A DNA stretch of 64,000 nt from an uncultured Nitrospiraceae bacterium (lineage in GTDB: Bacteria > Nitrospirota > Thermodesulfovibrionia > Thermodesulfovibrionales > Dissulfurispiraceae), in contig CAVSHF010000005.1 of NCBI GenBank assembly GCA_963727805.1, positions 352,001-416,000 of the forward strand, given 5' to 3'. The notes below the pieces were generated by a model. It did no database searches and was not told the DNA's origin. It was given only the letters and a program-made list of their open reading frames with translations. Shown here in pieces: positions 2,741-48,662 of the stretch (position 1 is its first letter; the number at the start of each line of letters is the position of its first letter). Made by a program: the position numbers and the translations under genes.

Positions 2741-3394
2741 ATGAAGGTGCTGGGCATTTCTGGCTCTCCCATCCCCAATAGTAATACTGATCGTGCAGTT
2801 AAGGCTGTGCTCGACGCTACAGGTCTTGAGACGGAATTTATCAAACTGATCGACTATACCATTGCCCCCTGTCAAGCCTGTCTCGGTTGTCTCGAGACAA
2901 ACCGCTGTGTCATTGAAGACGATGGTATCATTATGGCCGAAAAGGCTAAGGAGGCTGATGCGCTTGTTGTAGGCGGCTATACAAGCTATTCCAGTCTCGA
3001 TGCGCGCACCAAGGCATTCATTGAGCGGCTGTATCCGCTCCGCCATATCAATGGTTTTATGAGAGGCAAACCGGGAGGTGCTGTCATAACCTGTGCTGTC
3101 CCTGAAACAGCTAAGGAGTTGCCTCCCGCTTTCGATATGGGAAGCAACGCGATCATGTTCTACATGATGGAAGAGGGAATGATTTTTGAAGGCTCGGTAA
3201 GGGTTATGGGTAATCCCCCATGTATTAAATGCGGCCATGGCGATCTGTGCGATATGTCCGGTATAAAGATGCTCTTTGGACCCAACGCTACAATAGAAAG
3301 TGTCGGCGTCAATATTCTTGAAAGCCAGCAAAATGCTGTGACGGCAGCTATAGAGCTAGGAAAGAAAATAGCGCAGGCTCTTTCGGAGAAGTGA
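2741..3394 (+). CDS. Flavodoxin-family / iron-sulfur flavoprotein (NADPH-dependent FMN reductase fold)
   Basis: GISGSPIPNSNT FMN loop; CQACLGCLETNRC cluster motif. Confidence 0.85.
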   Translation: MKVLGISGSPIPNSNTDRAVKAVLDATGLETEFIKLIDYTIAPCQACLGCLETNRCVIEDDGIIMAEKAKEADALVVGGYTSYSSLDARTKAFIERLYPLRHINGFMRGKPGGAVITCAVPETAKELPPAFDMGSNAIMFYMMEEGMIFEGSVRVMGNPPCIKCGHGDLCDMSGIKMLFGPNATIESVGVNILESQQNAVTAAIELGKKIAQALSEK

Positions 3395-3449
3395 TTAGAA
3401 GCAATACGGCAATGCGCCTAAGTATGTATTCAAAAAGGAGGTGAAAGAT

Positions 3450-3566
3450 ATGCCAAAATGCGGGATATGTGGGGGAGAGGCTCCTAAGCAGCCTTGTATC
3501 ACGGAGGATGGCAAGTGCGACCTCTGTGGCAAAAAGGTCATCCTTGCAGAAGAAAAGAAAAAGTAA
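3450..3566 (+). CDS. 38-aa Cys-rich zinc-ribbon-like peptide, not in ORF track
   Basis: AAGGAGGTG RBS; MPKCGICGGEAPKQPCITEDGKCDLCGKKVILAEEKKK with two CxxCG motifs. Confidence 0.7.
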   Translation: MPKCGICGGEAPKQPCITEDGKCDLCGKKVILAEEKKK

Positions 3567-3702
3567 TACTGTAAACATAGAAATGAATACACTATAAGTC
3601 TAAGCCGCGGAAGTCTGAACGAAGCGGGGGTATGTGGATATTGGAATGCAAGCACTGCATATCCCCCGCTTTATTATTTAAGCAAGGAGGCAATACTAAC
3701 AC

Positions 3703-4395
3703 ATGGGATGTCTTTGCAATGATCTTGCTAGCAAGAATGCCTCACTTGCGTCCACCTGCATCGGCCATTTGTGGATGTTTGAGCACTTGCAGCCGTCCGA
3801 ACTGGAAGCTCTTGTTTCTGCTGCCGAGCGGAGGCAATTCAAGAAGGGACAGGCTGTTTTTATGCAAGGTAATCCCGGCACCGAGATGTTCCTGATAAAG
3901 GCTGGGCGGGTGAAGCTGAGCAAGCTCAATGAGGAGGGTAGCGAGCTTACTCTGGACATTCGCAAAGCTGGTGACTTTCTTGGCGAACAGATCCTTAACG
4001 AGGAGTTCGACTATCCCCTGACCGCAACCTGCCTCGAAGATTCTCTCGCCTGTGGTTTCTCTCGCCAGGGTTTTGAGAAGCTGATTCTCGACCACCCGAA
4101 CATCGGGCTTCAGGTGATCAAGAATCTGACCAGGCGTATCGAGTGGCTGACGAGCCGAGCCGAAACGATGACCACATCCAACCTTGAAGAGCGACTCTAC
4201 CGAGTGCTTACCACCGTAGCCGCCGAACACGGAGTAAAGAGTCTGAAGAAAACGACCATCCAGTTCCCTCTAACCCATGAAGAACTGAGCTTTCTAGTGG
4301 GTGCCCATCGGGTGAGCATCACCCGCGCCATGAAAAACTTGAGGGATTCAGGCAAGATCATTCAACAGGGCAAAACATTGATACTTGTGAACTGA
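3703..4395 (+). CDS. Crp/Fnr family transcriptional regulator
   Basis: cNMP-type domain (GRVKLSK, GDFLGE); HTH LTHEELSFLVGAHRVSITR; N-terminal Cys residues. Confidence 0.9.
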   Translation: MGCLCNDLASKNASLASTCIGHLWMFEHLQPSELEALVSAAERRQFKKGQAVFMQGNPGTEMFLIKAGRVKLSKLNEEGSELTLDIRKAGDFLGEQILNEEFDYPLTATCLEDSLACGFSRQGFEKLILDHPNIGLQVIKNLTRRIEWLTSRAETMTTSNLEERLYRVLTTVAAEHGVKSLKKTTIQFPLTHEELSFLVGAHRVSITRAMKNLRDSGKIIQQGKTLILVN

Positions 4396-4412
4396 CAATA
4401 GAGAAAGTATTA

Positions 4413-4535
4413 TCAACTATTAGCAACCATAGATTCCCCGTTCTGCAATTGCAACGTCGGGCTGCCTGTCATAATTACAGCTGCTGTGGTTGCCGACGTC
4501 TTCAAGAACTCCCTTCGACTCATCTCTGCTGCCAT
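4413..4535 (-). pseudogene. Orphan twin-arginine signal peptide (truncated gene remnant)
   Basis: GGAGG RBS; MAAEMSRREFLKTSATTAAVIMTG, stops after 40 aa. Confidence 0.55.
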
Positions 4536-4623
4536 GAATTAACCTCCTTCAGAGCTCTTATGCGGTTCCAAAAGGAGCCGCGATGTTAGACGCATTGCCC
4601 ATAAAATAGTTTGTTATTAGGAA

Positions 4624-4869
4624 CTAAAGTGTGCCTCTGTTGTTCAGCACTTTTTCAATCTCTTCAATCCGTTTGTTATATATCCTGCACTCTTCCTCGA
4701 ATTCTGTCTGCATGTTCTGCGCCTTTTCAGCGCCAATATGAGCAGACGTTTTGTCGAAAAAATATAGATGCATATCCTCGCAATCGCAGAGACACTCTTT
4801 AAGCCTTTCAAGCTCGACTTTCAGTTCCTCGTCTGTCATTTCATCAGGTCTGATATCTGTTTCCATCAT
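4624..4869 (-). CDS. Hypothetical acidic helical protein
   Basis: GGAG RBS; in operon order after the cupins. Confidence 0.65.
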   Translation of the reverse strand: MMETDIRPDEMTDEELKVELERLKECLCDCEDMHLYFFDKTSAHIGAEKAQNMQTEFEEECRIYNKRIEEIEKVLNNRGTL

Positions 4870-4893
4870 CTGCTCCGTATGTTGACGTGATAA

Positions 4894-5286
4894 TTAGCAT
4901 GAACACTCGCCGTAAGATTCCTTTGTGCTTTTTCCGTCACCTCCAGGGAGTATTGGAATAGTACAGACGACTGACATCATGGTTTTTCCCAGATTCTTGA
5001 TCTGATGCGGCTCGTTCGACGGTACATATATCATGTCACCGGCCTTTAATGGCCTTTCGTTTCCCTGGCAGTCCACATAGGCAGGTTCACCATCAAGGAA
5101 ATAAAATTCGTGCTCTTCCTCATGAGCGTGGAGAGAGGTGTGTCCGCCTGGTTCAAATTCCATTATCCGCATTGCATAATGAGGGCAGCCGTCTTCCTTA
5201 ATCAACGCAAAACGTGCATACATACCTGCGAAGCCCTCTCTGGCAATTAGAGTCCTCGGCACTTCTGTGAAATGCTTCTCGATCAT
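4894..5286 (-). CDS. Cupin domain protein
   Basis: PGGHTSLHAHEEEHEFYFLDG and PSNEPHQIKN motifs. Confidence 0.9.
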   Translation of the reverse strand: MIEKHFTEVPRTLIAREGFAGMYARFALIKEDGCPHYAMRIMEFEPGGHTSLHAHEEEHEFYFLDGEPAYVDCQGNERPLKAGDMIYVPSNEPHQIKNLGKTMMSVVCTIPILPGGDGKSTKESYGECSC

Positions 5287-5335
5287 TTGTAGCCTCCATC
5301 TTAATTGAGTTGATTGAAGTCATGGGTTTGTAAAA

Positions 5336-5686
5336 TCATATGATGCATGGATACCAAACATCATACGCAATAATGTCCTCCTCGATGTCGTGTGGCTGGT
5401 GCAGTGTTCCTTTGGGGATTCTTAAAAAAATCCCTTCGTGCAGTGGAACATCACCAAATCCCTCGACCCACATTTTTGCTTTTCCTCTCAGTACATAGAG
5501 AATGTCGTCGGAGTGTTCGTGAGAGTGCTTATCCGGTGCTGCTCCTGCCTGCAGATTAACCAAAGCGCAGGTGATACCGACAGCGTCAGTGTGATGTGAA
5601 ACAAGATAAGCAACTTCAACGCCGGAGAATTGGGGGTGAGGTTCCCATCTTACTTCAGAAGAATGAATCACTTTCAGACCTTTCAT
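5336..5686 (-). CDS. Cupin domain protein
   Basis: HSHEHSDDILYVLRG and PKGTLHQ motifs; start moved to the ATG with GAGGA RBS. Confidence 0.85.
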   Translation of the reverse strand: MKGLKVIHSSEVRWEPHPQFSGVEVAYLVSHHTDAVGITCALVNLQAGAAPDKHSHEHSDDILYVLRGKAKMWVEGFGDVPLHEGIFLRIPKGTLHQPHDIEEDIIAYDVWYPCII

Positions 5687-5821
5687 CGCATTGTCCTCAA
5701 TCACAGCAAACATTAACATACTTGACATAGCTACATGTTTAATACACTGACAAGTCCAAAAAAAATATAACCGCTAGCCCGTCATATTCCCTCCTTTCCC
5801 GAAATACAGTATTCCATCAAA

Positions 5822-6184
5822 TTAGACGTGCAGATTTTTTTTAATCTGATCGTATTTCGTCACAAAATAGTTCAAAATGGATATCCTCATCTCAATATCT
5901 TCCTTCCAGTATTCCAGCCTGTCAATCCCGGCAGATGTCAGCTGGTAGATCTTCTTTGCCGGTCCAGGATTTGAAGTATCCCAAGCAAATGTCACTTCAC
6001 CTTCCTGTTCCAATTTCTGAAGAGATCGATACACTGCGCCTGCATCCGCATTTTTGATGGGCATCTGTTTTGTCAAAATGGAAAATATCTCACCTCCATG
6101 GTTCGGCTTCTCAGCCAGTGCCAACAAGATAAAGGCAGGCAAGTGGCGATATTGTTTTTTCTTTTTCTTAGCGGCAATACTCAC
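5822..6184 (-). CDS. PadR family transcriptional regulator
   Basis: ILLALAEKPNHG, GAVYRSLQKLEQEG, GPAKKIYQLT; start uncertain (GTG 6184 chosen). Confidence 0.85.
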   Translation of the reverse strand: MSIAAKKKKKQYRHLPAFILLALAEKPNHGGEIFSILTKQMPIKNADAGAVYRSLQKLEQEGEVTFAWDTSNPGPAKKIYQLTSAGIDRLEYWKEDIEMRISILNYFVTKYDQIKKNLHV

Positions 6185-6659
6185 TGAAGATAGTATAGTG
6201 CACAATACATTTAAATGCAAGTATAATATTTTTCATGCTTACATTATCTTTTTCCCTTTGAATAAGTGTTACTCGACTGCGAACTTGCACACAGAGTTCT
6301 ACCGCACAGCATGACAACAGCACCGTAGCGGGTCAAAAAAACAAGGCCGATTTTCCCGTGGTCGGTAATGACTTTTTTTGGCAATCACCAAATTCATGCT
6401 ACGGCTAACCTCGATGATTTTTAGCAACCAAGTCAGTTGCCTCGATATTGCTGCCGCGATGACTTCGACATGAAAGCGATAGAACTAGCAGGGTGAATTC
6501 TTGAAACGACTAGCGATGATTTCCGTTTCTACCCACCAGTGTTTTCAGGATACGCTCGTCCGATAGTTACTCTGTAGATCGGAGTATAATATCAGACAAG
6601 CTGGGAGAAGGCACTCCATAGGCCTTGATAAAATCCTTGAACACAAAAAGGAGAATGCA

Positions 6660-6965
6660 ATGATTAATGTAATTGCATCAATTCGCGTAGAGACAGGAAG
6701 TCTTTCAAGTTTTCTCGAAATCTTTAGAGCCAACATGCCAAAGGTCAAAGAGGAAAAAGGATGTATCGAATATTTTCCGTTAGTCGATATCGACGCCAAA
6801 CTAGCATCACAAATATTGGATCAAAATGTTGTGACTATTATAGAAAAGTGGGAAAGCCTTGAAGCCCTCCGTGATCATCTTGAGGCGCCCCATATGCTTG
6901 CATACAGAGAAAAGGTGAAGAACATGGTAACAGGGCTATCTCTCAAAGTGTTGCGGGAAGCATGA
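6660..6965 (+). CDS. Antibiotic biosynthesis monooxygenase / putative quinol monooxygenase
   Basis: EKGCIEY and EKWESLEALRDHLEAPHM pattern. Confidence 0.85.
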   Translation: MINVIASIRVETGSLSSFLEIFRANMPKVKEEKGCIEYFPLVDIDAKLASQILDQNVVTIIEKWESLEALRDHLEAPHMLAYREKVKNMVTGLSLKVLREA

Positions 6966-7404
6966 CATGCAGGGTGGAAGACTTTAGCAGATGCCAGTGC
7001 GGCCCAACCATACAGAACCCCTAATATTCCCGGCACACCATTTAATTCTCTTTTATTCACAGACAAAAGTTGTTGTTATTGAAAATATAGCTTGTTTTTG
7101 GATTATTTATCTGGGTTGGCAACATCAAGAAAGCGAAAATGTGGACAAAATAGTTTTGCTGAGAGTCGCGTCCGCCCCGCCATACTTTCTAAACTATTTC
7201 AATCGGTTGCCAAAGTATTATGTAAGGAAGTACCGTCACCAGTATGCCCAGGGAGATTGAGGGGACTCTTCCATCCAGCTAGCAATGTCATCTTTTGTGA
7301 CGGTCGTCACCAAATCCGCAGTAACATCATTTTGGGTCTTATCTTCTGATACCAATAGGGCTATGATAAAAATACGTAGAGACTGACTTAGAAAGGGAGC
7401 AATA

Positions 7405-7668
7405 ATGACCAAAGTAAGTTTTCCGCCGGATCAAATTTACGATAATATATGCAATCTTATTATTTTTTCCTCATATGTCGGAGAAGGATTTATCCCATGC
7501 TCGATCTCAATTGAGGCATTACAGGATCACTTCCAGGCCGATCTCCTTCAACCAATGCAGGCCTTCCTTTGTAATCGTCTCGCAATCGAGCACATTGCCG
7601 AACGCCTCATTGATCAACAACGCTTCGAAGCTGATGGCTCAGTGCTAATAAGCACTACAGACTGTTAG
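7405..7668 (+). CDS. DUF1488-like small protein
   Basis: CSISIEALQDHF...AFLCNRLAIEHIAERLI pattern; GGGAG RBS. Confidence 0.7.
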   Translation: MTKVSFPPDQIYDNICNLIIFSSYVGEGFIPCSISIEALQDHFQADLLQPMQAFLCNRLAIEHIAERLIDQQRFEADGSVLISTTDC

Positions 7669-8339
7669 GGTCGCGTGGTCCCAACATTCGTCCGAGCGTC
7701 AAAATATTTTCAGGTTGCAAGATACCACTGAAAAAGAATCTTGTATTTGACTATCACCTCTATTTTCCTTGAAATGGGCCTTGTATGGGAGTGCAATTGC
7801 GGGGTAAGATGAAAAAAATATGGAAATAGTTACATTCCACAAGAAATTATCGAAATCGGATTCGCGATAACTTATAGTCATTGCCGTAGGGATAATGCTC
7901 ACTACTCAAGCTTCCTTTCGAAAGTCGAGACCAGCGCTCGTCGGTTGAGATTGTTTGTGGCTACTGAAAACCTTGTTTTTGGATTTTTTTGCGGGATGAT
8001 GATTGCCATTTGTACCCCTGCATTGTCGCCTGAACTTTGATGATCGTGGGTACATGTCGTAATCATCGCAGCAGCCGCATCAAGGCTGGCGACTTAGTCT
8101 CTACAAAAATCTTTGGCGCCTGCAGTCCCCGCCTATCGATGATTATGGAAATAATCTATCGGTGCCGTTTCGTTGGTTCACTTGTCTCACGCCTTGATCT
8201 GGACCGCTAGAGCCCATTTGAATGATATTGTTACTTGAACGAATATTGACCCCTTGTTACAATCTTATAGTGAAGGTCGAAACGTTCGCGAGCCCTAGCC
8301 GCCCAATCAGCAGAGTCACATTAAGCGAGAGGAATTACC

Positions 8340-9344
8340 ATGAGCAAGGCACAACCAACCCCTCCTGACCGGATTACGCCAGAGGAGGTCTATCTCAAGC
8401 GGCGCGAATTCATCAAGAACGGACTCTTGATAGCCGGCACTGCCACCGTTGTCGGCAGCGGCCTGGTCGGATTGATGAAGATCGCTCCTAACTCAATCGA
8501 TACCGGACGCGCAGTGATTCCGCCTACCCTGGTGGGTAATTCTATATCCACTGTGCCGGCGAGTACAGAGTATCCGAAGATCGGTGCTGACGAAAAGGCG
8601 AATTCGTACCAGGACATCACCACATACAACAACTTCTACGAGTTTGGCGTCGATAAGGCCGACCCGGTGAGGAATGCCGGCACCCTTCGGCCACGGCCGT
8701 GGTCGATTGCCGTGGAAGGGGAGTGTGCGAGGCCGCAGACCATAGATATCGATCAGCTGCTGAAATGGTTTCCGTTGGAGGAGCGCGTTTACCGGATGCG
8801 ATGCGTCGAGGCTTGGTCTATGGTAATCCCCTGGCTCGGGTTTCCGTTGCGTGATCTCATCAAGCGTCTGGAACCGACGTCAAAGGCAAGGTACGTGGTA
8901 TTCGAGACTCTTTTCGATCCCAATCAGATGCCGGAACAAAGAAAGTCGATTCTTAAGTGGCCGTATGTTGAAGGCCTTCGGATGGACGAGGCTATGCACC
9001 CGCTGACCCTGCTTGCGACTGGCATTTACGGGCGCCTGCTTCCGAATCAGAACGGGGCTCCCATCAGGCTCGTCGTGCCTTGGAAATACGGGTTTAAGGG
9101 CGTCAAATCTATTGTGAAGATCCGTTTCACCGAAGAACAACCGCCTACAACATGGAACCTGTCCGCGTCGGAGGAATACGGGTTCTACGCCAACGTGAAT
9201 CCCGACGTTCCGCACCCCAGGTGGAGCCAAGCGACTGAACGCCGGATCGGCGAGTTTATGCGTCGACCGACGCTCCCCTTCAACGGTTACGGTGAACAGG
9301 TGGCCCCTCTGTACCACGGAATGGACCTTCGGAAATACTTCTAG
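8340..9344 (+). CDS. msrP: Protein-methionine-sulfoxide reductase catalytic subunit
   Basis: Tat motif [48 protein letters not shown]. Confidence 0.97.
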
Positions 9345-9348
9345 CGCA

Positions 9349-10977
9349 ATGAAAAGGAGACGTCTTTCCTGGTTGGTTACCGGTGTAGTGGCCGGCGCTT
9401 TTGTGCCTCTAGTCGTTCTTGCGGAGCTGGCCTGGTCCCGACAATTGGGCGCCAATCCGATCGCCACCATTCTGAATCAGCTGGGATTCGTGGCGCTGGT
9501 TCTGCTAATGGGTTCGCTGGCCTGCACGCCGTTGAAAACTGTTACCGGATGGAGGTGGCCGATCCGTATCCGCAAGCCGTTGGGCGTGATGGGATTCGTC
9601 TATGCACTGCTTCACTTTCTAACCTACATCGGGCTCGATCGACTCCTCAGCTTCAAGACAGTCTGGCAGGATATCTCACGACGACCGTTCATCATCATAG
9701 GATTCACCGCTCTGATGATGCTGGTTCCGCTAGCAGCAACATCGACAGCCAGTGCATCTCGCCGGTTGGGAAAAACCTGGAAGGGACTTCACCGAATGGT
9801 GTATGTGATATCACCACTGGTCATCATTCACTTCACCATGCGGATGAAGGCCGACATACATCAGCCGGTGACCTACGGGGCGGTGCTCGCAGTTCTGCTC
9901 GCGACACGCGTCGTCGCTGCGGCAATAAAGCGCAAAAATGCCCCGGCCTGGGACGGATATCGGATGTTCAAGGTAGTGAAGAAGGAACATGAGCCGGGCC
10001 AGGTCTGTTCGTTATACCTCGAGCCGTCGGACGGGAAAAAGCTTCCGCCCTACAAGCCCGGTCAGTATTTGACTATGAAGGTCAACGTTGGGGGGGCTGA
10101 TGATTCAGTCATCCGCTGTTATTCCCTCTCCAGGCGTCCCGATTCTGATAGGTATCGCATCAGCGTCAAACGAATTCCGTTGGGGACTGCATCGAACTTT
10201 TTGCACGACCAGATCGTGGAAGGCACCGTCATTGAAGTCAAGGCACCGAAAGGAAAGTTCTTCGTGAAATCTTCCTCCCGGCGACCGGTGGTTTTGATTG
10301 GCGGCGGCATCGGCGTAACGCCACTGCTTGCGATGCTCGACGGGCTTACGGTGTCCGGTGCACGCGGTGTTATCTACTTTTTCTTCGGCGTTCGCAACAG
10401 CAGTGAACATTGCTTTCGCGATCAGCTGACTGCCATTGCCTCGCGCAACGGCGGCGTTAAGTTTCATGTGTGCTATTCCTCTCCCTTGCCTGAAGATCGC
10501 GTAGGGATAGATTGCCATTCCACCGGTCATATCACTGCGGCATTGCTTAAGGAAGTGCTTCCGAGTCTTGACTGCGATTTCTACGTCTGCGGGCCGCCCT
10601 CTATGATGGCTCAGCTTAAGGCCGATCTTGTAGCCGCGGGCGTCCCGGCGAAGAATTTCCACGTGGAGGCGTTCGGAGTGACTCAGGTAAAGAGGGCGGT
10701 AGGGCCGGGTGCGGCGGCTCAACGGTTTGTCGTCTCATTCGAGCTGTCCGGCAAGACGCTGGAATGGGACACGAAGTATGGCAGTCTGCTGGAATTCGCC
10801 GAGGCCAACGGGATTGAAATCGAGTTTGGCTGCCGGTCAGGCAACTGCGGCTCATGCGAAGTGGAGATCAACTCCGGCGAAGTGGAGTACCTGGTTGACC
10901 CCGGCGCCGCTCCGGAGGAGGGCGTATGCCTCACGTGCGTGACAGTGCCGAAAATGTCCCTGAGCCTGGAGGCTTAG
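9349..10977 (+). CDS. msrQ: MsrQ heme membrane subunit fused to FAD/NAD(P)H reductase and C-terminal 2Fe-2S ferredoxin
   Basis: N-terminal ferric-reductase-like TM region (YALLHF, WKGLHRMVY, IIHF); then RCYSLS, GGGIGVTP, YVCGP, CRSGNCGSC...CLTC. Confidence 0.85.
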   Translation: MKRRRLSWLVTGVVAGAFVPLVVLAELAWSRQLGANPIATILNQLGFVALVLLMGSLACTPLKTVTGWRWPIRIRKPLGVMGFVYALLHFLTYIGLDRLLSFKTVWQDISRRPFIIIGFTALMMLVPLAATSTASASRRLGKTWKGLHRMVYVISPLVIIHFTMRMKADIHQPVTYGAVLAVLLATRVVAAAIKRKNAPAWDGYRMFKVVKKEHEPGQVCSLYLEPSDGKKLPPYKPGQYLTMKVNVGGADDSVIRCYSLSRRPDSDRYRISVKRIPLGTASNFLHDQIVEGTVIEVKAPKGKFFVKSSSRRPVVLIGGGIGVTPLLAMLDGLTVSGARGVIYFFFGVRNSSEHCFRDQLTAIASRNGGVKFHVCYSSPLPEDRVGIDCHSTGHITAALLKEVLPSLDCDFYVCGPPSMMAQLKADLVAAGVPAKNFHVEAFGVTQVKRAVGPGAAAQRFVVSFELSGKTLEWDTKYGSLLEFAEANGIEIEFGCRSGNCGSCEVEINSGEVEYLVDPGAAPEEGVCLTCVTVPKMSLSLEA

Positions 10978-11393
10978 GCCAGAAAAAAACTGGACAGTCC
11001 AGAGGATGGCGCTAATTTAAGCGCCCCCCGCATGATATCTACTTCTATGCAGTGCGATGATTGCTGAATGTACTCTCTCTCATTGCCAGAAATGTGACGA
11101 TCTTGGTAGCATGTCTAAGTCATCGCGTCAGCCATATCCAGATGGCTTACTTGGCAGCTTACTTGGTTGCTAAATATACTGACCGAATTTATCAGTACGA
11201 TCTCACAACATTATTTCTCGAAGTCAAGGCTAGCGCTTTGTGACGGATAATGTTTGAGCCATACGATTATCAAAACTTTGGACATCTTTGTAAAATTATT
11301 GAATGCCGAAAATCATTGTCGGCTAACGCAATAGTTCGGACTCGGCTTTCGCCACACTATCAATCAATTGTAGCCCATTGTAATAAGGTTCGC

Positions 11394-12881
11394 TCATTTT
11401 TTGTTACTCTCCGTTAGCATATCGGACCGGTTCCACCAGCCCCCGCCCAAAGCCTGGAACAGCGCTGTTGTATCAGAGTATCGGCTGGCCAGGGCCTGTA
11501 CAAGATTGATCAGCGACTGCTGATAAGTCTGTTCAGCATTAAGCAACCCTAAATAACTGATATCACCAAGTTCTAGTTGACGGTGCGCAATGGAAAGAGT
11601 CTTCGCTGCAGCACGCTCGGCAGCGACAGCCACTTTTAACGCATCTGCATCAGATTGTATGGCGTGAAGAGTATCGGCCACATTCTGAAATGCTGTTAAA
11701 ACTGTACTCTTGTACTGTGCCGCAGCCTGGTCATATGCAGCTTCAGCAGCGCGTTGCCGGTGAAGCAATGTGCCCCCCTGGAAGATAGGCTGAGTTATAC
11801 TGCCGGCCAGGGACCAGAAGCCAGTGCCCGGAGTAAATAACTGATCGATTGCAAGGGCACTGCTGCCCAAATTGGCACTCAATGTGATATTCGGTAGCCG
11901 GTTGGCTATAGCTACGCCGATTTCCGCACTGGCAGCGTGTAGTTGCTCTTCAGCGGATCGCACGTCCGGTCTTTGCCCGACTAATTTGGAAGGAAGGCTC
12001 ACGGGAAGTTCCTGTGGCAGCTCCAGCGATGCAAGTTCGAACTTCTCAGCCAGCGTCTCGCTCGGGAAACGACCTGCAAGCCGTGCAAGTAAGTCGCGTT
12101 GCTGTGCCAGTTGTTTTTCCAATGGCGGCAGTGCGGTTTCGGTTTGAGCCAGTGCTGCTTCCTGTGCCGTTACATCCAGAGTGGCAACCTGTCCAAGATC
12201 GTATTGACGTTTCAATAATTCAAGCGATTTATTTTGAATATCTATGGTCCGCTTGGTGGCAGCTATTTGTCCACGCAGAGCAGCCTCCTGTATTGCCGCT
12301 GTTACAACATTGGAAGTCAAGGTTAGATAAGCAGCTTCCAACTGGAAACACTGCGATGCGGCCTGGGCCTTGAGCGATTCTACCTGCCTGCGGGTACCAC
12401 CGAACACGTCAGGCGCATAGGAGACGGCAACCTGCGCTGTGTGAAGACTAAAGATATTACTGCCATTGTTCAATGGACTGGAAAGCACTCCGGCTGTTTT
12501 CTGTCGCGTCGGAGTAAAACTGACTTCGACACTTGGAAAGAACGCACCTTGCTGTGCGTATACGCTTTCCCACGCGCCGCGCAGAGAAGCTTGAGCGGCC
12601 TCCAGGTCGGGATTGGCCCTGAGTGCTTGCTCAATGAGGTCATTGAGCGGCTTCGAGTGAAACAGCGTCCACCATTGCCCGGGTATGTCCATATCCTGCA
12701 CAAAACGTTGAGCCTCTCCGCCTTTGATATCGACCGAAGCTGTTTGTGGAGGCAGAGCCTGTGGGGTATAGCCATCGACAGCAAGGGAATGTGGGCGTTG
12801 GAAATCGGGACCAACGGCACATCCAGTTACAAAGACTGCAACAGTGAACAACACCATTATGAAAAACAATCTATGCATCAT
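11394..12881 (-). CDS. RND efflux outer membrane lipoprotein (NodT/OprM family)
   Basis: Lipobox VTGC; WWTLF, RPDVRSAE, ALGGGWW. Confidence 0.93.
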   Translation of the reverse strand: MMHRLFFIMVLFTVAVFVTGCAVGPDFQRPHSLAVDGYTPQALPPQTASVDIKGGEAQRFVQDMDIPGQWWTLFHSKPLNDLIEQALRANPDLEAAQASLRGAWESVYAQQGAFFPSVEVSFTPTRQKTAGVLSSPLNNGSNIFSLHTAQVAVSYAPDVFGGTRRQVESLKAQAASQCFQLEAAYLTLTSNVVTAAIQEAALRGQIAATKRTIDIQNKSLELLKRQYDLGQVATLDVTAQEAALAQTETALPPLEKQLAQQRDLLARLAGRFPSETLAEKFELASLELPQELPVSLPSKLVGQRPDVRSAEEQLHAASAEIGVAIANRLPNITLSANLGSSALAIDQLFTPGTGFWSLAGSITQPIFQGGTLLHRQRAAEAAYDQAAAQYKSTVLTAFQNVADTLHAIQSDADALKVAVAAERAAAKTLSIAHRQLELGDISYLGLLNAEQTYQQSLINLVQALASRYSDTTALFQALGGGWWNRSDMLTESNKK

Positions 12882-12884
12882 GAT

Positions 12885-15800
12885 TTATACCTCTTTTTCC
12901 GATCTCGGTTGTGCAGCAGTTTGACGGCGTTCCACCCACCTTTCCAGAGCGAAGTAACAGGTCGGCAGGATAAATAGCGTAAGGAGTGTTGCAATCATCA
13001 AGCCGCCCACAACCACAGTGGCTAGATTGCGCTGAACATCGGTTCCTATGCCCGTAGCCAATGCCGCAGGCAGCATTCCAATAGTCGCTACTGTTGCAGT
13101 CATGAGCACGGGTCTGAAACGCTCCCCAGCACCCGACAGAACGGCCTCATGCAGTTCTACTCCCTGCTCCCGCACCCGGTTGATATTGGCAATCATGATG
13201 ATGCCGTTTTGCACAGCTACGCCGAACAGTGCAATAAATCCGACAGCTGTAGCAACATTCAGCGTCTTGCCAGTGACGTGAAGCGTGAAGAGGCCGCCAA
13301 GTGTTGCCAACGGAACTACTCCGAGGATCAATATTGTCTGGCGTATTTTGCCAAATTCTGCAAAAAGGAACACAGTCATCAGCGCCAATACGATGCCCAT
13401 GATCAAAATTAGCCGGGCCTGAGCGCGCTGTTGATTTTCGAATTCCCCGCCCCACTCGATGCGATATTTATCGTGGTCAAAATGCACTGTTTGCTCTATC
13501 TTGTTCTGTGCCTCAGTCATGTAATCGGATAGTGCCCGGTCCTGTAGGTCAATCCTTACGAGCAGCACGCGATGACTTAGCTCGTGCGAAATGGTACTTT
13601 CTCCGGTCTGCATCTTGATATGGGCAACCTGGGAAAGCGGGATTTGTGCGCCACCGGGGGCTGTAAGCGGCAGGCTGCCCAGAGCTTCCGGATTGTTGCG
13701 TGTTTCTTTCGGGAACCGCACGGTAACGCCATATGTGCGGTCACTTACGTAGACTGTGCTGATAGGCGCTCCACCGACACCAGTCTGGATAAGGCTTGTG
13801 ATGTCGGAGACGTTAATCCCGTAGCGGGCTGCTGCTGCGCGATCAATATCAACCGCGATCTGCGGGATAGGAGGTTCCTGGAAGATGGAAGCATCTGCTG
13901 TGCCCCTGACGCCGTGCAGTATATTGACGATCTCACCTCCTATGCGACGCAGTTCGTTAAAGTCGTTGCCGAAAATGCGGATAACCAGCGGGCTGTGTGC
14001 GCCGCCGATCGCATCTTCCACCATATCGATAATCGGCTGGCTGACGCCGATGGAAACCCCCGGCAGCTTCTGCAGACGGGCATTGAGCCTCTGCAGAAAC
14101 ATCTCCCTGGTCTCGCCTTTTGGCCATTGCTCGTAAGGCTTCAGGCCGACGGGTGCCTCGATGTGGGAGGGCGTCCATGCATCGGTGCCGTCATCGCTGC
14201 GGCCAAGTTGGGTTATTGCATACGACACCTCAGGGAATTCATGCAACGTGCGCCGCAGTTCCCCTGCCATCTCGCTGGCTTTGTCGAGAGATATCCCGGA
14301 GGGCAATTGCACCTGTAACCAAAGGTTGCCTTCATCCAGCTCCGGCAGAAATTCGCGCCCGGTTGTCACACCCAGTACTACCACTAACACAAGGGCCACT
14401 CCCACGATAATGAACGCGATCTTCGGAATGGCAAGCATCCGCTCCAGTAGCCGGCGAAAGCCGTTCTGCAGGCTTTCGAGCGGCCGGTTGTAGAATATCT
14501 TGCGGGGCTTGCGAAAGGCCATAAAGGCGAGCCCCGGAATCAGCGTAAAAGTGCATAGAAGTGCTCCTAATAAGGCATAACCTACAGTGTAAGCCATTGG
14601 AGAGAAAAGCCTGGCTTCGGCGCGTTCAAACGCGAACAGCGGAAGATAGGCAGTGATGATTATTAGCGTGGCGAAGAAGATCGGCCGGGCTACCTGGGTC
14701 GTTGTGGTAAGTATATCCTGTTCACTTAAAAAAGTAGTCGGATCCGCTTCTCGCTTCCGCATAATGGCCTCGGTGACCACAATGGCACCGTCCACTATAA
14801 TGCCGAAGTCGATAGCACCAAGGGAGAAAAGGTTGGCTGGCATCTTTGTAAAATGCATCATTATAAAAACAGCGACAAGGGCCAAAGGTATTGTTACTGC
14901 CGTGATCAACGCGCTGCGTGGGCTGCCGAGAAAAAGAATCAGTACAATACATACCAGCCCGATGCCTTCCAGCACAGTATGAGAGACTTTGCGTATTGTC
15001 TCCTGTACAAGATCATCCCTATCTATATAGGAAACTATGTGCACACCCATCGATTTGAGTTGGTTATTCAGTTCTGCAACTTTAGAATGAATACCTTTAA
15101 GCACTTCCGAAGCATTTTGATACCTGAGCAAGTCTACAATGCCTTCAATAGTATCAGGGTTGTTGTCCTTGCCAAGTATGCCCTCGCGCTCCTGATGGCT
15201 GAAAGTCAGCTTGCCGAGATCGCGCACTAGGATCGGCACTCCGTTTCGCTGTGTGACGACTATGTTCCCGAGGTCGTCCAGTGTGCGAACCATGCCGATT
15301 CCACGTATAACATAGCCCTGTTCGCCGCGTGAAATGCGGCTGCCGCCGGCATTGGAGCTGTTATTGGTGATCGCTGTGACCACGTCGTTCAGAGCGATGC
15401 CATAACGTTGAAGCTGCAATGGGTCAAGCTCTAGTTGATACTGCTTCGTGAAACCGCCGAAATTGGCCACAGATACAACGCCGGGCACCTGCTGAAGGGC
15501 GGGCATTACGATCCATCGCTGGACCTCCGAGAGGTCCATCAGGTTTTTGGTATCCGACTCCAGCGTATACCGGTAAATTTCGCCTGTCGGACCGGCAAGC
15601 GGAAGAAGGCTCGGCATGATGCCAGTTGGCAGAGTGACCTGACTTATGTTGTCGGAGACGCGCTGACGTGCCCAGTAGTCTTCGACTCCATCACGAAATA
15701 TAATCGGTATGATCGACAGGCCAAACGTGCTGCTTGAACGCATGGATTGCACGCCGGGTGTGCCTGCCAGTGCCCGCTCTAATGGAATAGTTATCTGTTG

Positions 15801-15986
15801 CTCCACCTCCTCAGCTGCAAGCCCCGGCGCTTGGGTGACGACCTGCGCTGTCACATCTCCGATATCCGGATACGCCTCAACCGCCAGTTTTGTCCATGAA
15901 TAATAGCCAAAAAGGCAGAGCAAGATAGCGACCATTAGTACAACAAATCGCTTTCGAAGGCAGATAGCAATGATGCGATTAATCAT
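12885..15986 (-). CDS. CusA/CzcA family heavy-metal efflux RND transporter
   Basis: 1033 aa; LGAIDFGIIVDGAIVVTE and RFRPVLMTA. Confidence 0.95.
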   Translation of the reverse strand: MINRIIAICLRKRFVVLMVAILLCLFGYYSWTKLAVEAYPDIGDVTAQVVTQAPGLAAEEVEQQITIPLERALAGTPGVQSMRSSSTFGLSIIPIIFRDGVEDYWARQRVSDNISQVTLPTGIMPSLLPLAGPTGEIYRYTLESDTKNLMDLSEVQRWIVMPALQQVPGVVSVANFGGFTKQYQLELDPLQLQRYGIALNDVVTAITNNSSNAGGSRISRGEQGYVIRGIGMVRTLDDLGNIVVTQRNGVPILVRDLGKLTFSHQEREGILGKDNNPDTIEGIVDLLRYQNASEVLKGIHSKVAELNNQLKSMGVHIVSYIDRDDLVQETIRKVSHTVLEGIGLVCIVLILFLGSPRSALITAVTIPLALVAVFIMMHFTKMPANLFSLGAIDFGIIVDGAIVVTEAIMRKREADPTTFLSEQDILTTTTQVARPIFFATLIIITAYLPLFAFERAEARLFSPMAYTVGYALLGALLCTFTLIPGLAFMAFRKPRKIFYNRPLESLQNGFRRLLERMLAIPKIAFIIVGVALVLVVVLGVTTGREFLPELDEGNLWLQVQLPSGISLDKASEMAGELRRTLHEFPEVSYAITQLGRSDDGTDAWTPSHIEAPVGLKPYEQWPKGETREMFLQRLNARLQKLPGVSIGVSQPIIDMVEDAIGGAHSPLVIRIFGNDFNELRRIGGEIVNILHGVRGTADASIFQEPPIPQIAVDIDRAAAARYGINVSDITSLIQTGVGGAPISTVYVSDRTYGVTVRFPKETRNNPEALGSLPLTAPGGAQIPLSQVAHIKMQTGESTISHELSHRVLLVRIDLQDRALSDYMTEAQNKIEQTVHFDHDKYRIEWGGEFENQQRAQARLILIMGIVLALMTVFLFAEFGKIRQTILILGVVPLATLGGLFTLHVTGKTLNVATAVGFIALFGVAVQNGIIMIANINRVREQGVELHEAVLSGAGERFRPVLMTATVATIGMLPAALATGIGTDVQRNLATVVVGGLMIATLLTLFILPTCYFALERWVERRQTAAQPRSEKEV

Positions 15987-17142
15987 TTAGAAGCACTCCC
16001 CCCCTGACTATGATATGATCACCCGGATTTAACCCCTGGTCGATGCGAGTGCTGTCGCCCTCTCCATAGCCAGGCACGACCGACTGCCTGACAAAAGTCC
16101 AGGGGGATTCCTCCACAAACACCGTGGTTCTGTCGTTGTCCATAAGCAGAGCGGAATTGGGTACAAATACAGCAGATTTCTGAGGTACGTTGAAACTTGC
16201 GGTAGCGAACATGTTGGGCTTGAATTTACCGTCGGGATTGGCAAAGGCAATACGCACCTTATCACGACGAGTGTCGGGTTCGACCACCTGGCTTACGAAT
16301 GCGACTGCGCCGTGAAATATCTGCCCTGGATATGCAGCAAAAGATACATCCACAGACTGGCCTTTTGCAACGTTGGCGATTTCACTCTCCGGCACGTTTG
16401 CCGTGACCCAAACAAAATCGAGATTTGCAATCGTCATGAGTGACGCGGTCAGGTCGTTGACGAATGCACCTGGCGCGGTCGTTAGCGCCGTGACACTTCC
16501 GTTCATTGGAGCAGTGAGCGTCAAAAGGCGCAACCCGTCTTTGGGACGGGACGAAACTCCGATTTCGTTGAGGCGGGCTTCAGCCCGGTTGAATTCCGCC
16601 TTGGCCTGGGCATAGTCGCTCTCTGCCAGTTCTAAGTCTTTAAGGGCACCGGCGCCCGCCTCACGCAGACCTCGCACACGTTTTAGCGTGCTATCGGCTC
16701 GCTGCTGCGCATCTCGCGCCTTGTCGTCGTCTGCATATGCCTGGGCCAGATCGCCAGAATTAATCACGACGAGCGGTTGGCCCTTTAAAACATGATCACC
16801 CAAGTGGACCAAGAGCCTTACCACTCTGCCGGATAACGGAGACAGTATATTGACCGTTCGTGATGGGTCCGCCTCTACTGCAGCGGTCAACATAATCTTA
16901 TGTGGACCGTCGTTGACGGTTACCTGCTGAACGACCACTTGCGAACGCAGCGCAGAGCCCTGCGGTATGATTATTTTGTCGCCCTGACGGATAAGAGCCG
17001 GCTGTGCACTTTCCTGTACTGCAGCATGTCCAGACGAGTTGAACAAGCGTGTGCCAAGCCCAACGCTTAGCACTACAATGATTGTTGTGACGCCGATCAT
17101 GGCGAAGCGTTTTTGCGGCGGATAGTGATTAAAAATAGACAT
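15979..17142 (-). CDS. RND periplasmic adaptor subunit
   Basis: N-terminal TM; SPLSGRV, APMNGSV, FKPNMFA. Confidence 0.92.
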   Translation of the reverse strand: MSIFNHYPPQKRFAMIGVTTIIVVLSVGLGTRLFNSSGHAAVQESAQPALIRQGDKIIIPQGSALRSQVVVQQVTVNDGPHKIMLTAAVEADPSRTVNILSPLSGRVVRLLVHLGDHVLKGQPLVVINSGDLAQAYADDDKARDAQQRADSTLKRVRGLREAGAGALKDLELAESDYAQAKAEFNRAEARLNEIGVSSRPKDGLRLLTLTAPMNGSVTALTTAPGAFVNDLTASLMTIANLDFVWVTANVPESEIANVAKGQSVDVSFAAYPGQIFHGAVAFVSQVVEPDTRRDKVRIAFANPDGKFKPNMFATASFNVPQKSAVFVPNSALLMDNDRTTVFVEESPWTFVRQSVVPGYGEGDSTRIDQGLNPGDHIIVRGGVLLND

Positions 17143-36724: not shown

Positions 36725-36959
36725 AATTTATTCTCCATTTGTTTATAAATGATTATCAGCAACACAGTTGTCGGCAAGTTGATAGCAAAAGCATTTCTGT
36801 CATCCTGATTCATTGGAAACTACGGAACGCCGACATAAATCCATGCTCAGGAGGATTTCACTGTTTGTTTGACCTGGATGTCTTATCCAGTCCCATTAGT
36901 CTTTCTGTACCGTCTCATCCTGACCTCCCTCTTCCCTCGAAGGGTGTAGTAATTTTTGA

Positions 36960-37180
36960 GATATTCAGGGTCTCCTGACTCAGGGCAACCTACTCGCCCG
37001 CCTTCCCGGATTTGACACCAGTGGCTTTCACAGTGATAAACTTTCTTCTCGGGTACGTAACGGCTTTTCACCATGCTCCGAGATTTAAAGCCAGCTTTTC
37101 ACTGATCGAAGGCTTTCGTTCCCTTTACAGTTGCGGGGCAGTTCCCGTATTCCACGGGATTCCCCTTGAATACCTCTGTG
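36960..37180 (-). ncRNA. Cobalamin riboswitch
   Basis: Minus strand GGGAATCCCGTG...CCCCGCAACTGTAA...GCCACTG...GGGAAGG...GAGTCAGGAGACC. Confidence 0.9.
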
Positions 37181-37297
37181 AAATTGCCTAAAGCAACTTC
37201 AAGAATATTGTTGCGTACTCTCCATCTCCACCGTGCCATTGGCAATTAGGCGCTTCAGTTCTAACCCTTCCTTTGATTGCCGCATGCTGCATCATGT

Positions 37298-41334: not shown

Positions 41335-41470
41335 GCACCCTGATTTACTTCATCCTCTTTCCTTCCAGCCATGGCAAGGAGGGTTGATGAGTGAATGTTG
41401 AGTGGGGAACGGGGTATTCTTTAGGAGTGCCCTAATGATCTTCCCGTCATCAGCAACATGTCACTGAGTA

Positions 41471-41640
41471 TCACAGGCAGGTCTTCTGGCTATCGGATCT
41501 TCCTACTCACCAGCCTTCCCAGAGTTTTCCTCCAGTGGCTCAGTTGGCTTTCGTCCCCGATTACAGCGGCGGGCCCGCTCCCGAATCGGCGTTTCCGCCC
41601 CACGGGATTCCCTATTAATCCTTACGGCACCTGAGATAGT
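41471..41640 (-). ncRNA. Cobalamin riboswitch
   Basis: Minus strand AGGTGC...AATAGGGAATCCCGTG...GCCCGCCGCTGTAA...GCCACTG...GGGAAGG...GCCAGAAGACCTGCC. Confidence 0.93.
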
Positions 41641-42407
41641 ATTTTATAATCCTTAATTGGATCTTTTGTCAACTTAGTGTCAATCGAGATGGTGTCAATG
41701 GAGTGTGTAATCGAGTGTCATCGAGTCGTGGTGTCTATTAAATTGGGCTTTAATATCCCTGATCTGATGAATCATAATTATTAAAATAAACATTCATCAA
41801 TGGATCCAGTCTCAAAGTTTCAGACTTTAGATGGAAAGTTTTTAATAGATTCCACTTCCTGAAACTCTTTGGTAGGAGTGGCTATAAACACCCTAAGATA
41901 GTTGCAGGAAGAATTTTTTTGCCGGGGATAGGGAGAGCAAACGCCCCATTTAAATTCTCTAATATGTGTTGTACAGGACATAATTAATACCCAGCTAACT
42001 ATATTTCTGGTAGTAATCTCCAAAATTATCAGCATGAGCACTAGTGGTAATTACTGTGAAGCAAGTGAGTGTGCACCTCGATATTTCTGGATGCAAGGTT
42101 ACGAATAAGCGTCAATCCGCTGCGAAGTTGCGGATTGACGTGTGAAGGACTAAGCCGCTGTGCGGATATGTCAATTCAATCGAAGATTATCCTTCCTTAT
42201 ACTATCGGCAGTGGCATCTTTTAGGATATATAGGAGCAAGTCTTGCTGAACAAGGCTGATAGGCAGCGTCTTTAATGCCCCTGTTTGACCTTTGCGATGA
42301 TGTGCAAGGGCCGAAAGTGGCGTTTTCGGACAACAAGACCGTGTTGCGAAAAGAGATGTTTTTTTCGCGGGGCGATATTGAGGCGATTTTTGAAACGACC
42401 ACGGTTT

Positions 42408-43604
42408 TCATCGGCATTGCTCCGGAGGATCGTTGCAGCGGCGGGGAGGCAGAATCTCAATTCGGCGCATCTTGCCTTTTTTGCAAACGGGGCAGGTGGT
42501 GACGTCAATGCCGCAGATCCTTAGCAGCTGTTCCTGCCAGGTCTCAGGCTTGTCCTGCTCTTTCATTACGGTGTTGTGACTGTCAAGAAGCTCGCGGCAT
42601 GCAGCAATGTTATCTCTACGTTTCCTGTTTGCCAGCAGGCCGAAGTGCCTTATCCGAACGTATCGATTCGGCAGTACATGCAGAAGGAATCTTCTGATGA
42701 ACTCATCGGCCTGCAGAGTCATCACCTTGTGCTTATCGTCATCTGCGTAATCACGCCATTTGAACGAGACCTTGCCGTTTTCGGCCTCGATTATACGATT
42801 GTTGCTGATGGCGATCCTGTGCGTATATCGGCCGAGATATTGCAGGACGCCGCCAACTCCGTCGAAGGGCGGTTTGCAGTAGACAACCCACTTCTTGTGA
42901 TAAAGCTTTCTTCTGAGCATCTCGAAGGTATGGGAATCGCCGAGATGACTTATTCCTCCGGGAAAGATAAGATCACCCGCTTCAAAGATCCTTTTCAGAT
43001 GATCGAGGAACTTTCCCCGGAACAACGCCGACATTACCCTGACCGGAATGAAGAAGCCTTTGCGGCAGGATACCCAACTGTCTCCGTCGCAAGACAGGCC
43101 GCCTCCGGTGACGACACAGTGGATATGGGGATGGTCCATCAGATTCTGCCCCCAGGTATGAAGGATGCTGATGAAGCCGATGCGGGCACCGAGATGCTTC
43201 TGGTCATTTGAGAGTTCGGTGAGAGTTTCGGAGACACAACGGAACAGCAGATCATACATGACCTTCTGATTCATTATGACAACCGGATTGAGTTCCGACG
43301 GGATAGTGAAAACTACATGGAAGTACTGGATGGGCAAAAGGTCCTGTTGTCTGGCCTCAATCCACTGTTCTTTTTTCAGGGTCTGGCATTTGGGACAGTG
43401 CCTGTTCCGGCAGGAGTTGTAGGATATCTCGACGTGGCCGCAATCCTCGCACTTGTCCCTATGGCCTCCGAGTGCTGCCGTCCTGCATATCTCCACGGCG
43501 TGCATGGCCCGCAGATGACGAAGAGGCAAGGAATGAGACTGCCGATAATCGGAGCCGTAGCGGCGTAAGATATCCGCCACCTCCACACCACGAGACTGGC
43601 GCAT
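42408..43604 (-). CDS. IS91 family transposase
   Basis: YNSCRNRHCPKC, HVVFT, HPHIH, YLGRY. Confidence 0.95.
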   Translation of the reverse strand: MRQSRGVEVADILRRYGSDYRQSHSLPLRHLRAMHAVEICRTAALGGHRDKCEDCGHVEISYNSCRNRHCPKCQTLKKEQWIEARQQDLLPIQYFHVVFTIPSELNPVVIMNQKVMYDLLFRCVSETLTELSNDQKHLGARIGFISILHTWGQNLMDHPHIHCVVTGGGLSCDGDSWVSCRKGFFIPVRVMSALFRGKFLDHLKRIFEAGDLIFPGGISHLGDSHTFEMLRRKLYHKKWVVYCKPPFDGVGGVLQYLGRYTHRIAISNNRIIEAENGKVSFKWRDYADDDKHKVMTLQADEFIRRFLLHVLPNRYVRIRHFGLLANRKRRDNIAACRELLDSHNTVMKEQDKPETWQEQLLRICGIDVTTCPVCKKGKMRRIEILPPRRCNDPPEQCR

Positions 43605-43625
43605 CTGGATTTACGGCTCAGAGTG

Positions 43626-44471: not shown

Positions 44472-44810
44472 AATACAATCTCCTTTGAAACTGTTTTCTG
44501 CCAGCTCATGCCGGCAGCACAGCAAAGAGAGATTGTAAAAAGACTTCGATGGTTCAACAAAGAAATGTGATCAGGCAAAAGTGGCTATTCGAAAAAGATG
44601 GTACTACTACTGATAGGCCCTTGCTAATCGAATCCACCGCGCAGCGGTTTAGTCCTACTAAATATAATCGAGGTTGCACCTAACACAGTGAGAGGCTTTG
44701 TTTCAGTCGGAAATACTCAAATTTATTCCATTTTGCTTTAATGCTTATTCTAGCACTCCCAATCTGAGGCGCCAGTATCAGATATTCAATGATTTCCGGA
44801 TTAATAAAAC

Positions 44811-48640: not shown

Positions 48641-48662
48641 AATCGTTGATTTCCGAAAGTTA

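Follow-up and report, generated by a model that had tools for sequence, protein, structure and literature searches.

The electron source of the MsrPQ methionine sulfoxide reductase system is disputed, with genetics pointing to quinones, and redox potentials together with the biochemistry of the flavin reductase Fre pointing to NAD(P)H (PMC12525009). The locus described here, which lies in a window of 64,000 nucleotides from an uncultured Nitrospiraceae bacterium (the whole stretch analysed; contig CAVSHF010000005.1), is an msrPQ operon in which the MsrQ chain continues into an FNR-type reductase and then a 2Fe-2S ferredoxin domain. It thereby raises the question of whether NAD(P)H feeds MsrQ through a module carried on the same polypeptide and, if so, by which cofactors the electrons reach MsrP.

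An MsrQ-reductase-ferredoxin fusion encoded next to msrP

The fusion gene, whose product we call P0001, begins 4 bases after the msrP stop codon (Table 1). As originally predicted, a single ORF joins MsrQ to FAD/NAD domains and a plant-type ferredoxin, and all four Pfam domains score over cut-off (Ferric_reduct at residues 45-156, FAD_binding_6 at 209-304, NAD_binding_1 at 316-422 and Fer2 at 470-535); the domain-architecture search next to msrP that had been proposed as a check thus recovers the four-domain fusion immediately behind an intact msrP. An in-frame upstream GTG at 9292, which would give a protein of 561 aa, was rejected as the start because the ATG coincides with the start of the homologues. 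Promoter-like consensus sites number 8 in the interval 7700-11400, against 3.0 expected from shuffles.

The MsrP of the window shares 53% identity with its E. coli counterpart, and in addition to its equivalog score (Table 1) it displays a twin-arginine motif (KRREFIK) near residue 20 and a cysteine, Cys155, that aligns with Cys102 of the mature E. coli protein; ten other compared positions are also kept. We take the compared positions to be functional sites and the cysteine matching Cys102 to be Mo-binding. TatC and MoaC are both present in the host.

Table 1. Features of the msrPQ locus (coordinates are those of the window)
Feature	Position	Strand	Description
Putative promoter-like element	8235..8263	+	consensus match upstream of msrP: TTGAAC-17-TACAAT plus extended TG
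msrP	8340-9344	+	334 aa; periplasmic molybdoenzyme; NF003767 481.8 bits, cut-off 207
Fusion ORF P0001	ATG 9349 to stop 10977	+	542 aa, uninterrupted
MsrQ domain, aa 1-197	9349..9939	+	NF003831; alignment to E. coli MsrQ; structure model
FNR-family reductase module, aa 198-446	9940..10686	+	PF00970, PF00175; structural matches; motif conservation
Plant-type 2Fe-2S ferredoxin domain, C-terminal, aa 455-542	10711..10977	+	PF00111; four Cys

The fusion is an authentic gene

An ORF of this kind could in principle arise by chimeric assembly, or be a dead fusion produced by read-through, and one relative, from a delta proteobacterium record (locus L001, 76% identity), lends some substance to that reading: both of its genes carry frame breaks and the relative is annotated as a separate 298-aa reductase (P0014). 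However, among the best 120 matches 12 other, independent 90% clusters match P0001 over 98-100% of its length at 61-95% identity. These 12 clusters and P0001 constitute the 13 proteins that we term clade A, which forms one 50% cluster with P0009 as its sole entry in the wider cluster listing. In all three further clade A loci (L001, L101 and L102) msrP lies directly upstream of the fusion, and in L101 (80%) and L102 (96%) both genes are intact. L102 shares the 90% cluster of the window and adds little independence, but its codon differences from the window (32 synonymous, 20 non-synonymous) show an excess of synonymous changes that counts against a dead fusion. Read support across ~9930-9960, another check suggested with the original prediction, was also found: contigs were examined for 4 of the 20 runs holding the stretch (four studies; two DNA and two RNA libraries), and in 4/4 of them the junction at ~9937-9951 is bridged, by contigs spanning 9872-10683, 9780-10862, 9752-10048 and 9807-10050. 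Two contigs bridge the msrP-msrQ boundary, and contigs from the RNA libraries cover parts of msrP and of the fusion gene, although these are no proof of transcription. There is no step in GC/GC3 at the junction (0.556/0.638 versus 0.552/0.641). Hence, on the strength of the full-length clusters, the spanning contigs and the msrP-linked loci, the fusion is a product of neither chance nor chimerism; an assembly chimera is ruled out, and we give practically no credence to the wider reading that includes a dead fusion.

Affinities and topology of the membrane domain

The first 195 residues of P0001 score 155.2 bits with the MsrQ equivalog model NF003831 (cut-off 130), and all 11 other clade A proteins scanned also exceed this cut-off. 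Since P0001 is 542 aa long and carries FNR and Fer2 domains, rather than being a stand-alone protein of ~200 aa, it is a variant of MsrQ and not a canonical member. A comparison of individual positions showed that: 1) E. coli MsrQ residues R77, H91, L131, S135, W147, H151 and H164 are kept in 13/13 clade A proteins, the equivalents in P0001 being R75, H89, L128, S132, W144, H148 and H161. 2) In E. coli, H91 and H164 bind the single periplasmic heme, whereas other residues line a cytoplasmic FMN pocket (PMC12525009); by alignment, His89 and His161 are the predicted heme ligands of P0001, conserved throughout clade A (13/13). 3) The predicted FMN-site residues of P0001 are Arg75, Lys76, Leu128, Ser132, Trp144 and His148. 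4) The position of E. coli Arg78, whose mutation to alanine abolishes FMN binding, is a lysine in 12 of the 13 clade A proteins, as it is in 51 of 120 stand-alone MsrQs and in STEAP (PMC12525009). 5) R77 of MsrQ occupies the position of a NOX heme histidine (PMC12525009), and this first NOX heme His is replaced by Arg75 or its equivalent in 13/13 clade A proteins. The arginine at this position marks the membrane part as being of the one-heme/FMN MsrQ/STEAP type and not of the two-heme NOX type.

NOX enzymes are defined by four histidines binding two hemes (PMC5676040, PMC3591440). The original description of the fusion as NOX-like therefore does not extend to membership, which we rejected on account of the arginine found in place of the first heme His in every clade A protein. 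A related reading would make the fusion a bacterial NOX or ferric reductase acting on O2 or chelated iron, with msrP a mere neighbor. It would account for FRD, FAD and NAD(P) domains on one chain, the fold matches to SpNOX and DUOX, and the existence of more distant fusions without msrP (clade B, see below). We nevertheless consider it very unlikely, given the arginine substitution, the MsrQ equivalog score, the nesting of the fusion among stand-alone MsrQs in trees, and the genomic setting, in which the host's sole MsrQ match starts 4 bases behind its sole full msrP.

A structure model of P0001 (pLDDT 89.2, pTM 0.76, from a 145-row alignment) has six helices ending at residue 197, followed by an FNR fold (204-440) and then a ferredoxin fold. 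The linker at 445-456 coincides with a dip in pLDDT, and this low-confidence stretch between the FNR and ferredoxin domains is probably flexible. Lysines plus arginines number 4 at the N-terminus, 5 in loop 2, 5 in loop 4 and 4 in the C-terminal flank, as against 1, 4 and 2 in loops 1, 3 and 5, with loop 3 (4 K/R) as the weak spot of the positive-inside pattern. On account of the even number of helices and the side to which the FMN site maps, the reductase module is predicted to be cytoplasmic. The topology prediction that had been called for thus places it, from six helices and the positive-inside pattern, in the cytoplasm and not in the periplasm.

The reductase and ferredoxin modules

The FAD-binding barrel of P0001 has the motif RCYS (256-259) and its NAD(P) fold the motifs GGGIGVTP, CGP and EAF; both the FAD and the NAD(P) motifs are intact in 13/13 clade A proteins. 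Likewise, the four 2Fe-2S ligands (Cys495, Cys500, Cys503 and Cys530) have equivalents in all 13, and binding of these cofactors is likely. The closest solved relatives of the reductase are the reductase domains of flavohemoglobins (1gvh, E 6e-44; 4eh1, rmsd ~2 Å), and residues 198-542 as a whole match phthalate dioxygenase reductase (PDR) and the reductase of CYP116B (2pia, 6laa, 6kbh), superposing on 6kbh with an rmsd of 4.3 Å over 352 columns. With the Fre model NF005963, P0001 scores 57.2 bits against a cut-off of 230. The reductase is flavohemoglobin/PDR-like and not Fre-like. At the position after Ser377, clade A proteins have Ser, Ala or Asn, and never Arg (13/13); by the usual FNR rules this hints at NADH, but no more than that.

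In PDR and the CYP116B reductase the Fe-S cluster is the exit point for electrons, and its potential in PDR is about -170 mV. The stretch from Arg187 to Trp201, which connects the membrane domain to the FAD barrel, is 14 residues long in 13/13 clade A proteins. Superposition of the complete model on SpNOX fails (rmsd 13.5-14.2 Å), so that no docking geometry can be claimed from it. A complex prediction of the MsrQ domain and the ferredoxin domain with heme and FMN scored 0.13 against a mark of 0.32 and counts neither way.

A proposed path for electrons

We propose that hydride from NAD(P)H would be accepted, on the cytoplasmic side, by the FAD of the fused reductase, which would pass single electrons to the 2Fe-2S cluster. 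The ferredoxin domain may then swing on its linker to the predicted FMN at the cytoplasmic face of MsrQ, from where electrons would proceed through the single heme b to the Mo center of MsrP and on to methionine sulfoxide. MsrP could in this way repair oxidized methionines with neither a separate Fre nor a quinol donor. The FMN is included in this path because Arg75 is a signature of the MsrQ/STEAP type, which combines one heme with a flavin. The original prediction of a self-contained NAD(P)H wire is therefore still the best reading, given a real fusion next to msrP, conserved motifs and a reductase predicted to be cytoplasmic, but it had left out the FMN. The lysine found in 12 of the 13 clade A proteins in place of Arg78, which E. 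coli MsrQ needs to bind FMN, counts against the proposed path, though stand-alone MsrQs and STEAP can have it as well.

That NAD(P)H feeds MsrQ through the fused module is, in our judgment, highly probable, and the direction of flow is likely to be as proposed. E. coli MsrQ has a heme at about -250 mV and an FMN at about -340 mV, which puts both out of reach of any quinol, and MsrP stands at about -250 mV, with menaquinone at -70 mV (PMC12525009). A pyridine-nucleotide donor is favored because these FMN, heme and MsrP potentials lie far below that of menaquinone. The alternative that quinol feeds MsrQ, with the fused module occupied otherwise, for instance in reducing the quinone that is bound or in returning electrons to NAD(P)+ or to ferredoxin, can draw on the menaquinone genes of the host (see below), on the UQ8/MK8 bound by E. 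coli MsrQ and the loss of MsrPQ activity in quinone-synthesis mutants (PMC12525009), and on a 2026 review that still calls these enzymes quinol-fed (PMC13488963). We regard it as improbable, both for the potentials just given and since the repeated occurrence of a reductase-MsrQ fusion beside msrP is more simply explained as donor supply. Nonetheless, given the quinones bound by the E. coli protein, the term quinone-independent, as used in the original prediction, should mean just not quinol-fed.

The complete one-chain sequence, from NAD(P)H through FAD, 2Fe-2S, FMN and heme to MsrP, is the version that we favor with moderate confidence, and a place for the Fe-S cluster on the path seems to us reasonably probable. 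The order FAD to Fe-S to FMN is likely, but the Fe-S step is the weakest of the path. With a potential like that of PDR, transfer from the cluster to an FMN at -340 mV would be uphill, and FAD could reach the FMN directly by way of the short fixed linker. A reading with the same source and sink, in which FAD reduces the FMN or heme of MsrQ directly and the 2Fe-2S domain serves as a buffer beside the path or as the site where electrons from reduced ferredoxin enter, would make sense of the 14-residue stretch that holds the FAD barrel near the membrane in 13/13 proteins, and of the reduction of E. coli MsrQ and its FMN by NADH/Fre in the absence of Fe-S (PMC12525009). Entry from ferredoxin would also suit the DsrA of the host, which may point to an anaerobic lifestyle with low-potential carriers. 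We think this reading rather unlikely, as the four Fe-S cysteines are kept in 13/13 clade A proteins and in 124 of 125 proteins of clade C (see below), where the one protein without them is shorter and has no ferredoxin domain; the orientation in the model, unlike that of SpNOX, is a further, weak point against it.

Host genome and origin of the gene pair

The 3.89 Mb host genome has one msrQ match, the fusion itself, and one full msrP. Over the whole genome no Fre orthologue scores above the NF005963 cut-off, and tblastn found no other FNR in the host; an HMM search of the host recovered four more NAD_binding_1 proteins. By eye, two of these four resemble hydrogenase-gamma/AsrB-type subunits. 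Two MqnA/MqnD-family genes show that menaquinone synthesis is encoded, and we accordingly rejected the idea that a quinone-less host was the reason for the fusion.

The two genes have a GC content of 55-60%, against 49.1 +/- 3.1% across 1269 long ORFs; only 1.4% of these have a GC content of 56% or more. Further, msrP was not found in any of 24 genomes of the same family, and the 3 of 16 other genomes of the order that have it all possess stand-alone MsrQs. Neither 40 relatives nor 300 genomes of the host's phylum yielded the fusion. The gene pair was likely acquired horizontally. No second full-length copy was recovered from 60 relatives of G041, three Planctomycetota genomes and the 300 genomes of the phylum, and none of 1932 plasmid records with a match covers 80% of P0001. 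Stand-alone MsrQs, some of them with names from Myxococcota and Chloroflexota, share 52-61% identity with the MsrQ half; unfused reductases, mostly ~420 aa long, share 48-51% with the reductase half. An ORF with at least 3 CxxCH motifs occurs on the same strand in 65 of 80 loci, mostly of this reductase family. Sediment, peat, wetland and soil are the labels of the runs in which the stretch occurs.

The wider family and the number of fusion events

By HMM, 29 of 267 proteins gathered in the searches contain an FRD. The architecture is by no means as rare as the original prediction implied: clade C, with names from Planctomycetota, is much larger than clade A, and among the 120 clusters listed for P0342, 119 combine FRD, NAD-binding and Fer2 domains. 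Four of 201 genomes from the class to which G106 belongs encode the full fusion, with msrP directly upstream in 4/4. The best reductase model is GbcB for clade C and Hmp for clade A. In clade B (Methyloprofundus, Cerasicoccus and others) the FRD is more distantly related and likewise shows the pattern of Arg and three His. None of four clade B loci has msrP, and 3 of the 4 have an ORF for a multiheme cytochrome c; C. frondis has no msrP match, and two Methyloprofundus genomes have msrP elsewhere. As clade B lies beside cytochrome genes and not msrP, architecture alone does not fix the acceptor. Clusters combining porins and multiheme cytochromes have been described in Verrucomicrobia (PMC5615132).

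In a tree of MsrQ domains clade A falls among stand-alone MsrQs, as the sister of the unfused P0133 (support 99-100), and a single origin is rejected, both for A+C (p 0.0046) and for A+C+P0385 (p 0.0003). In the reductase tree A is separate from C; here one clade of A+C+P0385 is not rejected (p 0.29), whereas A+C alone gives p 0.034 and all FRD fusions p 0.037. These trees are quick and unrooted, with groups named after a tree was seen, and include 30-34 of 120 stand-alone MsrQ rows, sampled for likeness to clade A. We consider it likely that clades A and C were fused independently; one fusion followed by losses or domain swaps is less likely.

Relationship to known systems

Automatic protein names at JGI already join the two halves of the fusion, and the title of a 2004 work by von Rozycki reportedly speaks of YedZ fused to electron carriers. 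The legend of Figure 3 in Zhang et al. 2013 lists an FRD domain model, M8, with Ferredoxin/Fer2, known from that legend and linked there to neither msrP nor a mechanism, and dataset 2 of the same work includes an FRD from Pirellula staleyi (D2QW70), similar to clade C when judged by eye; the parts of its supplement examined hold no Fer2/PF00111 rows (PMC3591440). Thus, the FRD-Fer2 architecture was probably catalogued before. MsrQ is described as having no cytosolic dehydrogenase domain (PMC12525009), MsrQ plus Fre is treated as an unfused analogue of NOX (PMC5676040, PMC11031084, PMC8228183), and the portion of the review PMC13488963 consulted mentions no MsrQ fusion. The literature searched, which did not extend to subscription papers, yielded no description of an MsrQ-FNR-2Fe-2S protein beside msrP.

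Compared with E. coli MsrPQ (YedYZ) and Fre, the locus has the same msrP-msrQ operon and keeps the heme and FMN-site residues, but the fused MsrQ carries its own Hmp/PDR-like reductase and a 2Fe-2S domain, and Arg78 is replaced by Lys. With SpNOX and long-form bacterial FRD proteins it has in common a single chain in which the FRD precedes FAD- and NAD(P)-binding domains; unlike SpNOX and bacterial NOX, it has three His and an Arg, an extra 2Fe-2S domain, and a protein acceptor encoded next door. In STEAP2-4, too, an FRD with one heme and a flavin carries its own cytosolic NAD(P)H oxidoreductase (PMC12525009, PMC3591440), but theirs is an N-terminal F420-type domain, for which P0001 has no Pfam match, and their acceptor is chelated metal, where the fusion has a C-terminal FNR and ferredoxin and MsrP. 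From PDR and the CYP116B reductase, with which it shares the order and fold of FNR and C-terminal 2Fe-2S domains and the four-Cys plant-type motif, the fusion differs in being tethered to a membrane FRD, whereas the PDR type feeds a soluble oxygenase; its FNR part is also closer in sequence to flavohemoglobin than to PDR. By analogy, it is best read as working like STEAP, or like Fre with MsrQ, and not like NOX.

Functional and evolutionary implications

The fusion is a real and conserved variant of MsrPQ, apparently unstudied, whose predicted function is best read as that of a self-sufficient system. Its novelty is limited, as all of its parts are known and the architecture is common in Planctomycetota. 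However, a natural one-chain MsrQ-reductase beside msrP is comparative evidence for a cytoplasmic donor, and makes the dispute over the donor testable with one purified protein. The fusion would represent a bacterial equivalent of STEAP2-4 for which a physiological acceptor is probably at hand, something that SpNOX lacks (PMC11031084). It is also a tractable target for a first structure of MsrQ.

More generally, and as a tentative proposal about which we are ourselves doubtful, MsrQ-type one-heme/FMN domains may have captured an FNR-2Fe-2S reductase at least three times, as a general means of feeding them from NAD(P)H, by a one-electron Fe-S step, rather than from quinols, with the wire delivering electrons of low potential to MsrP in clades A and C and to a multiheme cytochrome c in clade B. 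If this is true, such one-chain proteins would carry electrons from NAD(P)H into the periplasm while bypassing quinones, ending in MsrP or in multiheme cytochrome c conduits.

Cysteines and genomic setting of the window fusion

All 13 members of clade A, the group of MsrQ-FNR-Fer2 fusions that includes the window protein, share an additional cysteine (Cys527) three residues ahead of the fourth Fe-S ligand, and the equivalent position is occupied by Ile or Val in nearly all members of clade C, the larger Planctomycetota-named group. Two residues ahead of Cys495 most clade A members display another cysteine, which is Phe in the window protein. A further fusion of the same architecture (P0385, 530 aa), from a cluster of 11 members, falls outside both clade A and clade C in the MsrQ tree.

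In the window the msrPQ operon converges with an RND efflux operon, and the two share an elevated GC content across 8.3-17 kb. Elsewhere, of the two cobalamin riboswitches one lies upstream of a TonB receptor and the other upstream of cbiZ and an ABC transporter. No ORF of at least 150 aa is present between the two group II intron domains.

Features of the window and of the comparison loci (L)
Feature	Coordinates	Strand	Content
Small genes upstream of msrPQ	window 2741-7668		FMN reductase family, Crp/Fnr regulator, two cupins, PadR, ABM monooxygenase, DUF1488
Fe-S-site cysteine region	window 10825-10938 (aa 493-530)		
RND efflux operon	window 11394-17142	-	outer membrane factor, AcrB/CusA-family pump, membrane-fusion protein
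Cobalamin riboswitches (2)	window 36949-37210; 41459-41649	-	
Mobile remains	window 42408-49300		IS91-type transposase with integrase, IS110 transposase, group II intron domains
Group II intron domains	window 48690-48809; 49224-49300		
FNR-2Fe-2S protein (~420 aa), examples	L006:4418-5716; L039:4992-6257		
Clade B fusion loci	L002:64-5949; L008:637-6596; L016:699-6599		

Unfused relatives and clade B fusions

Among unfused proteins, the one most closely related to the reductase half of the window fusion is a widespread (L004-L080), Hmp-like FNR-2Fe-2S protein of ~420 aa with a hydrophobic stretch at its N-terminus. A multiheme cytochrome c ORF (same strand, at least three CxxCH motifs) is present in 65 of a set of 80 loci, mostly of this reductase family, and L006 additionally carries a cNMP-binding/4Fe-4S gene.

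In three loci of clade B, the more distant fusions, the FNR-2Fe-2S module is joined to an FRD of the Arg/three-His pattern, and the fusion gene is immediately preceded by genes for a multiheme cytochrome c and a ~700-aa protein with no Pfam match. No msrP was found near these three fusions, and a search of the C. frondis genome for this gene likewise returned no match. The clade B locus possibly represents an NAD(P)H-to-cytochrome conduit.
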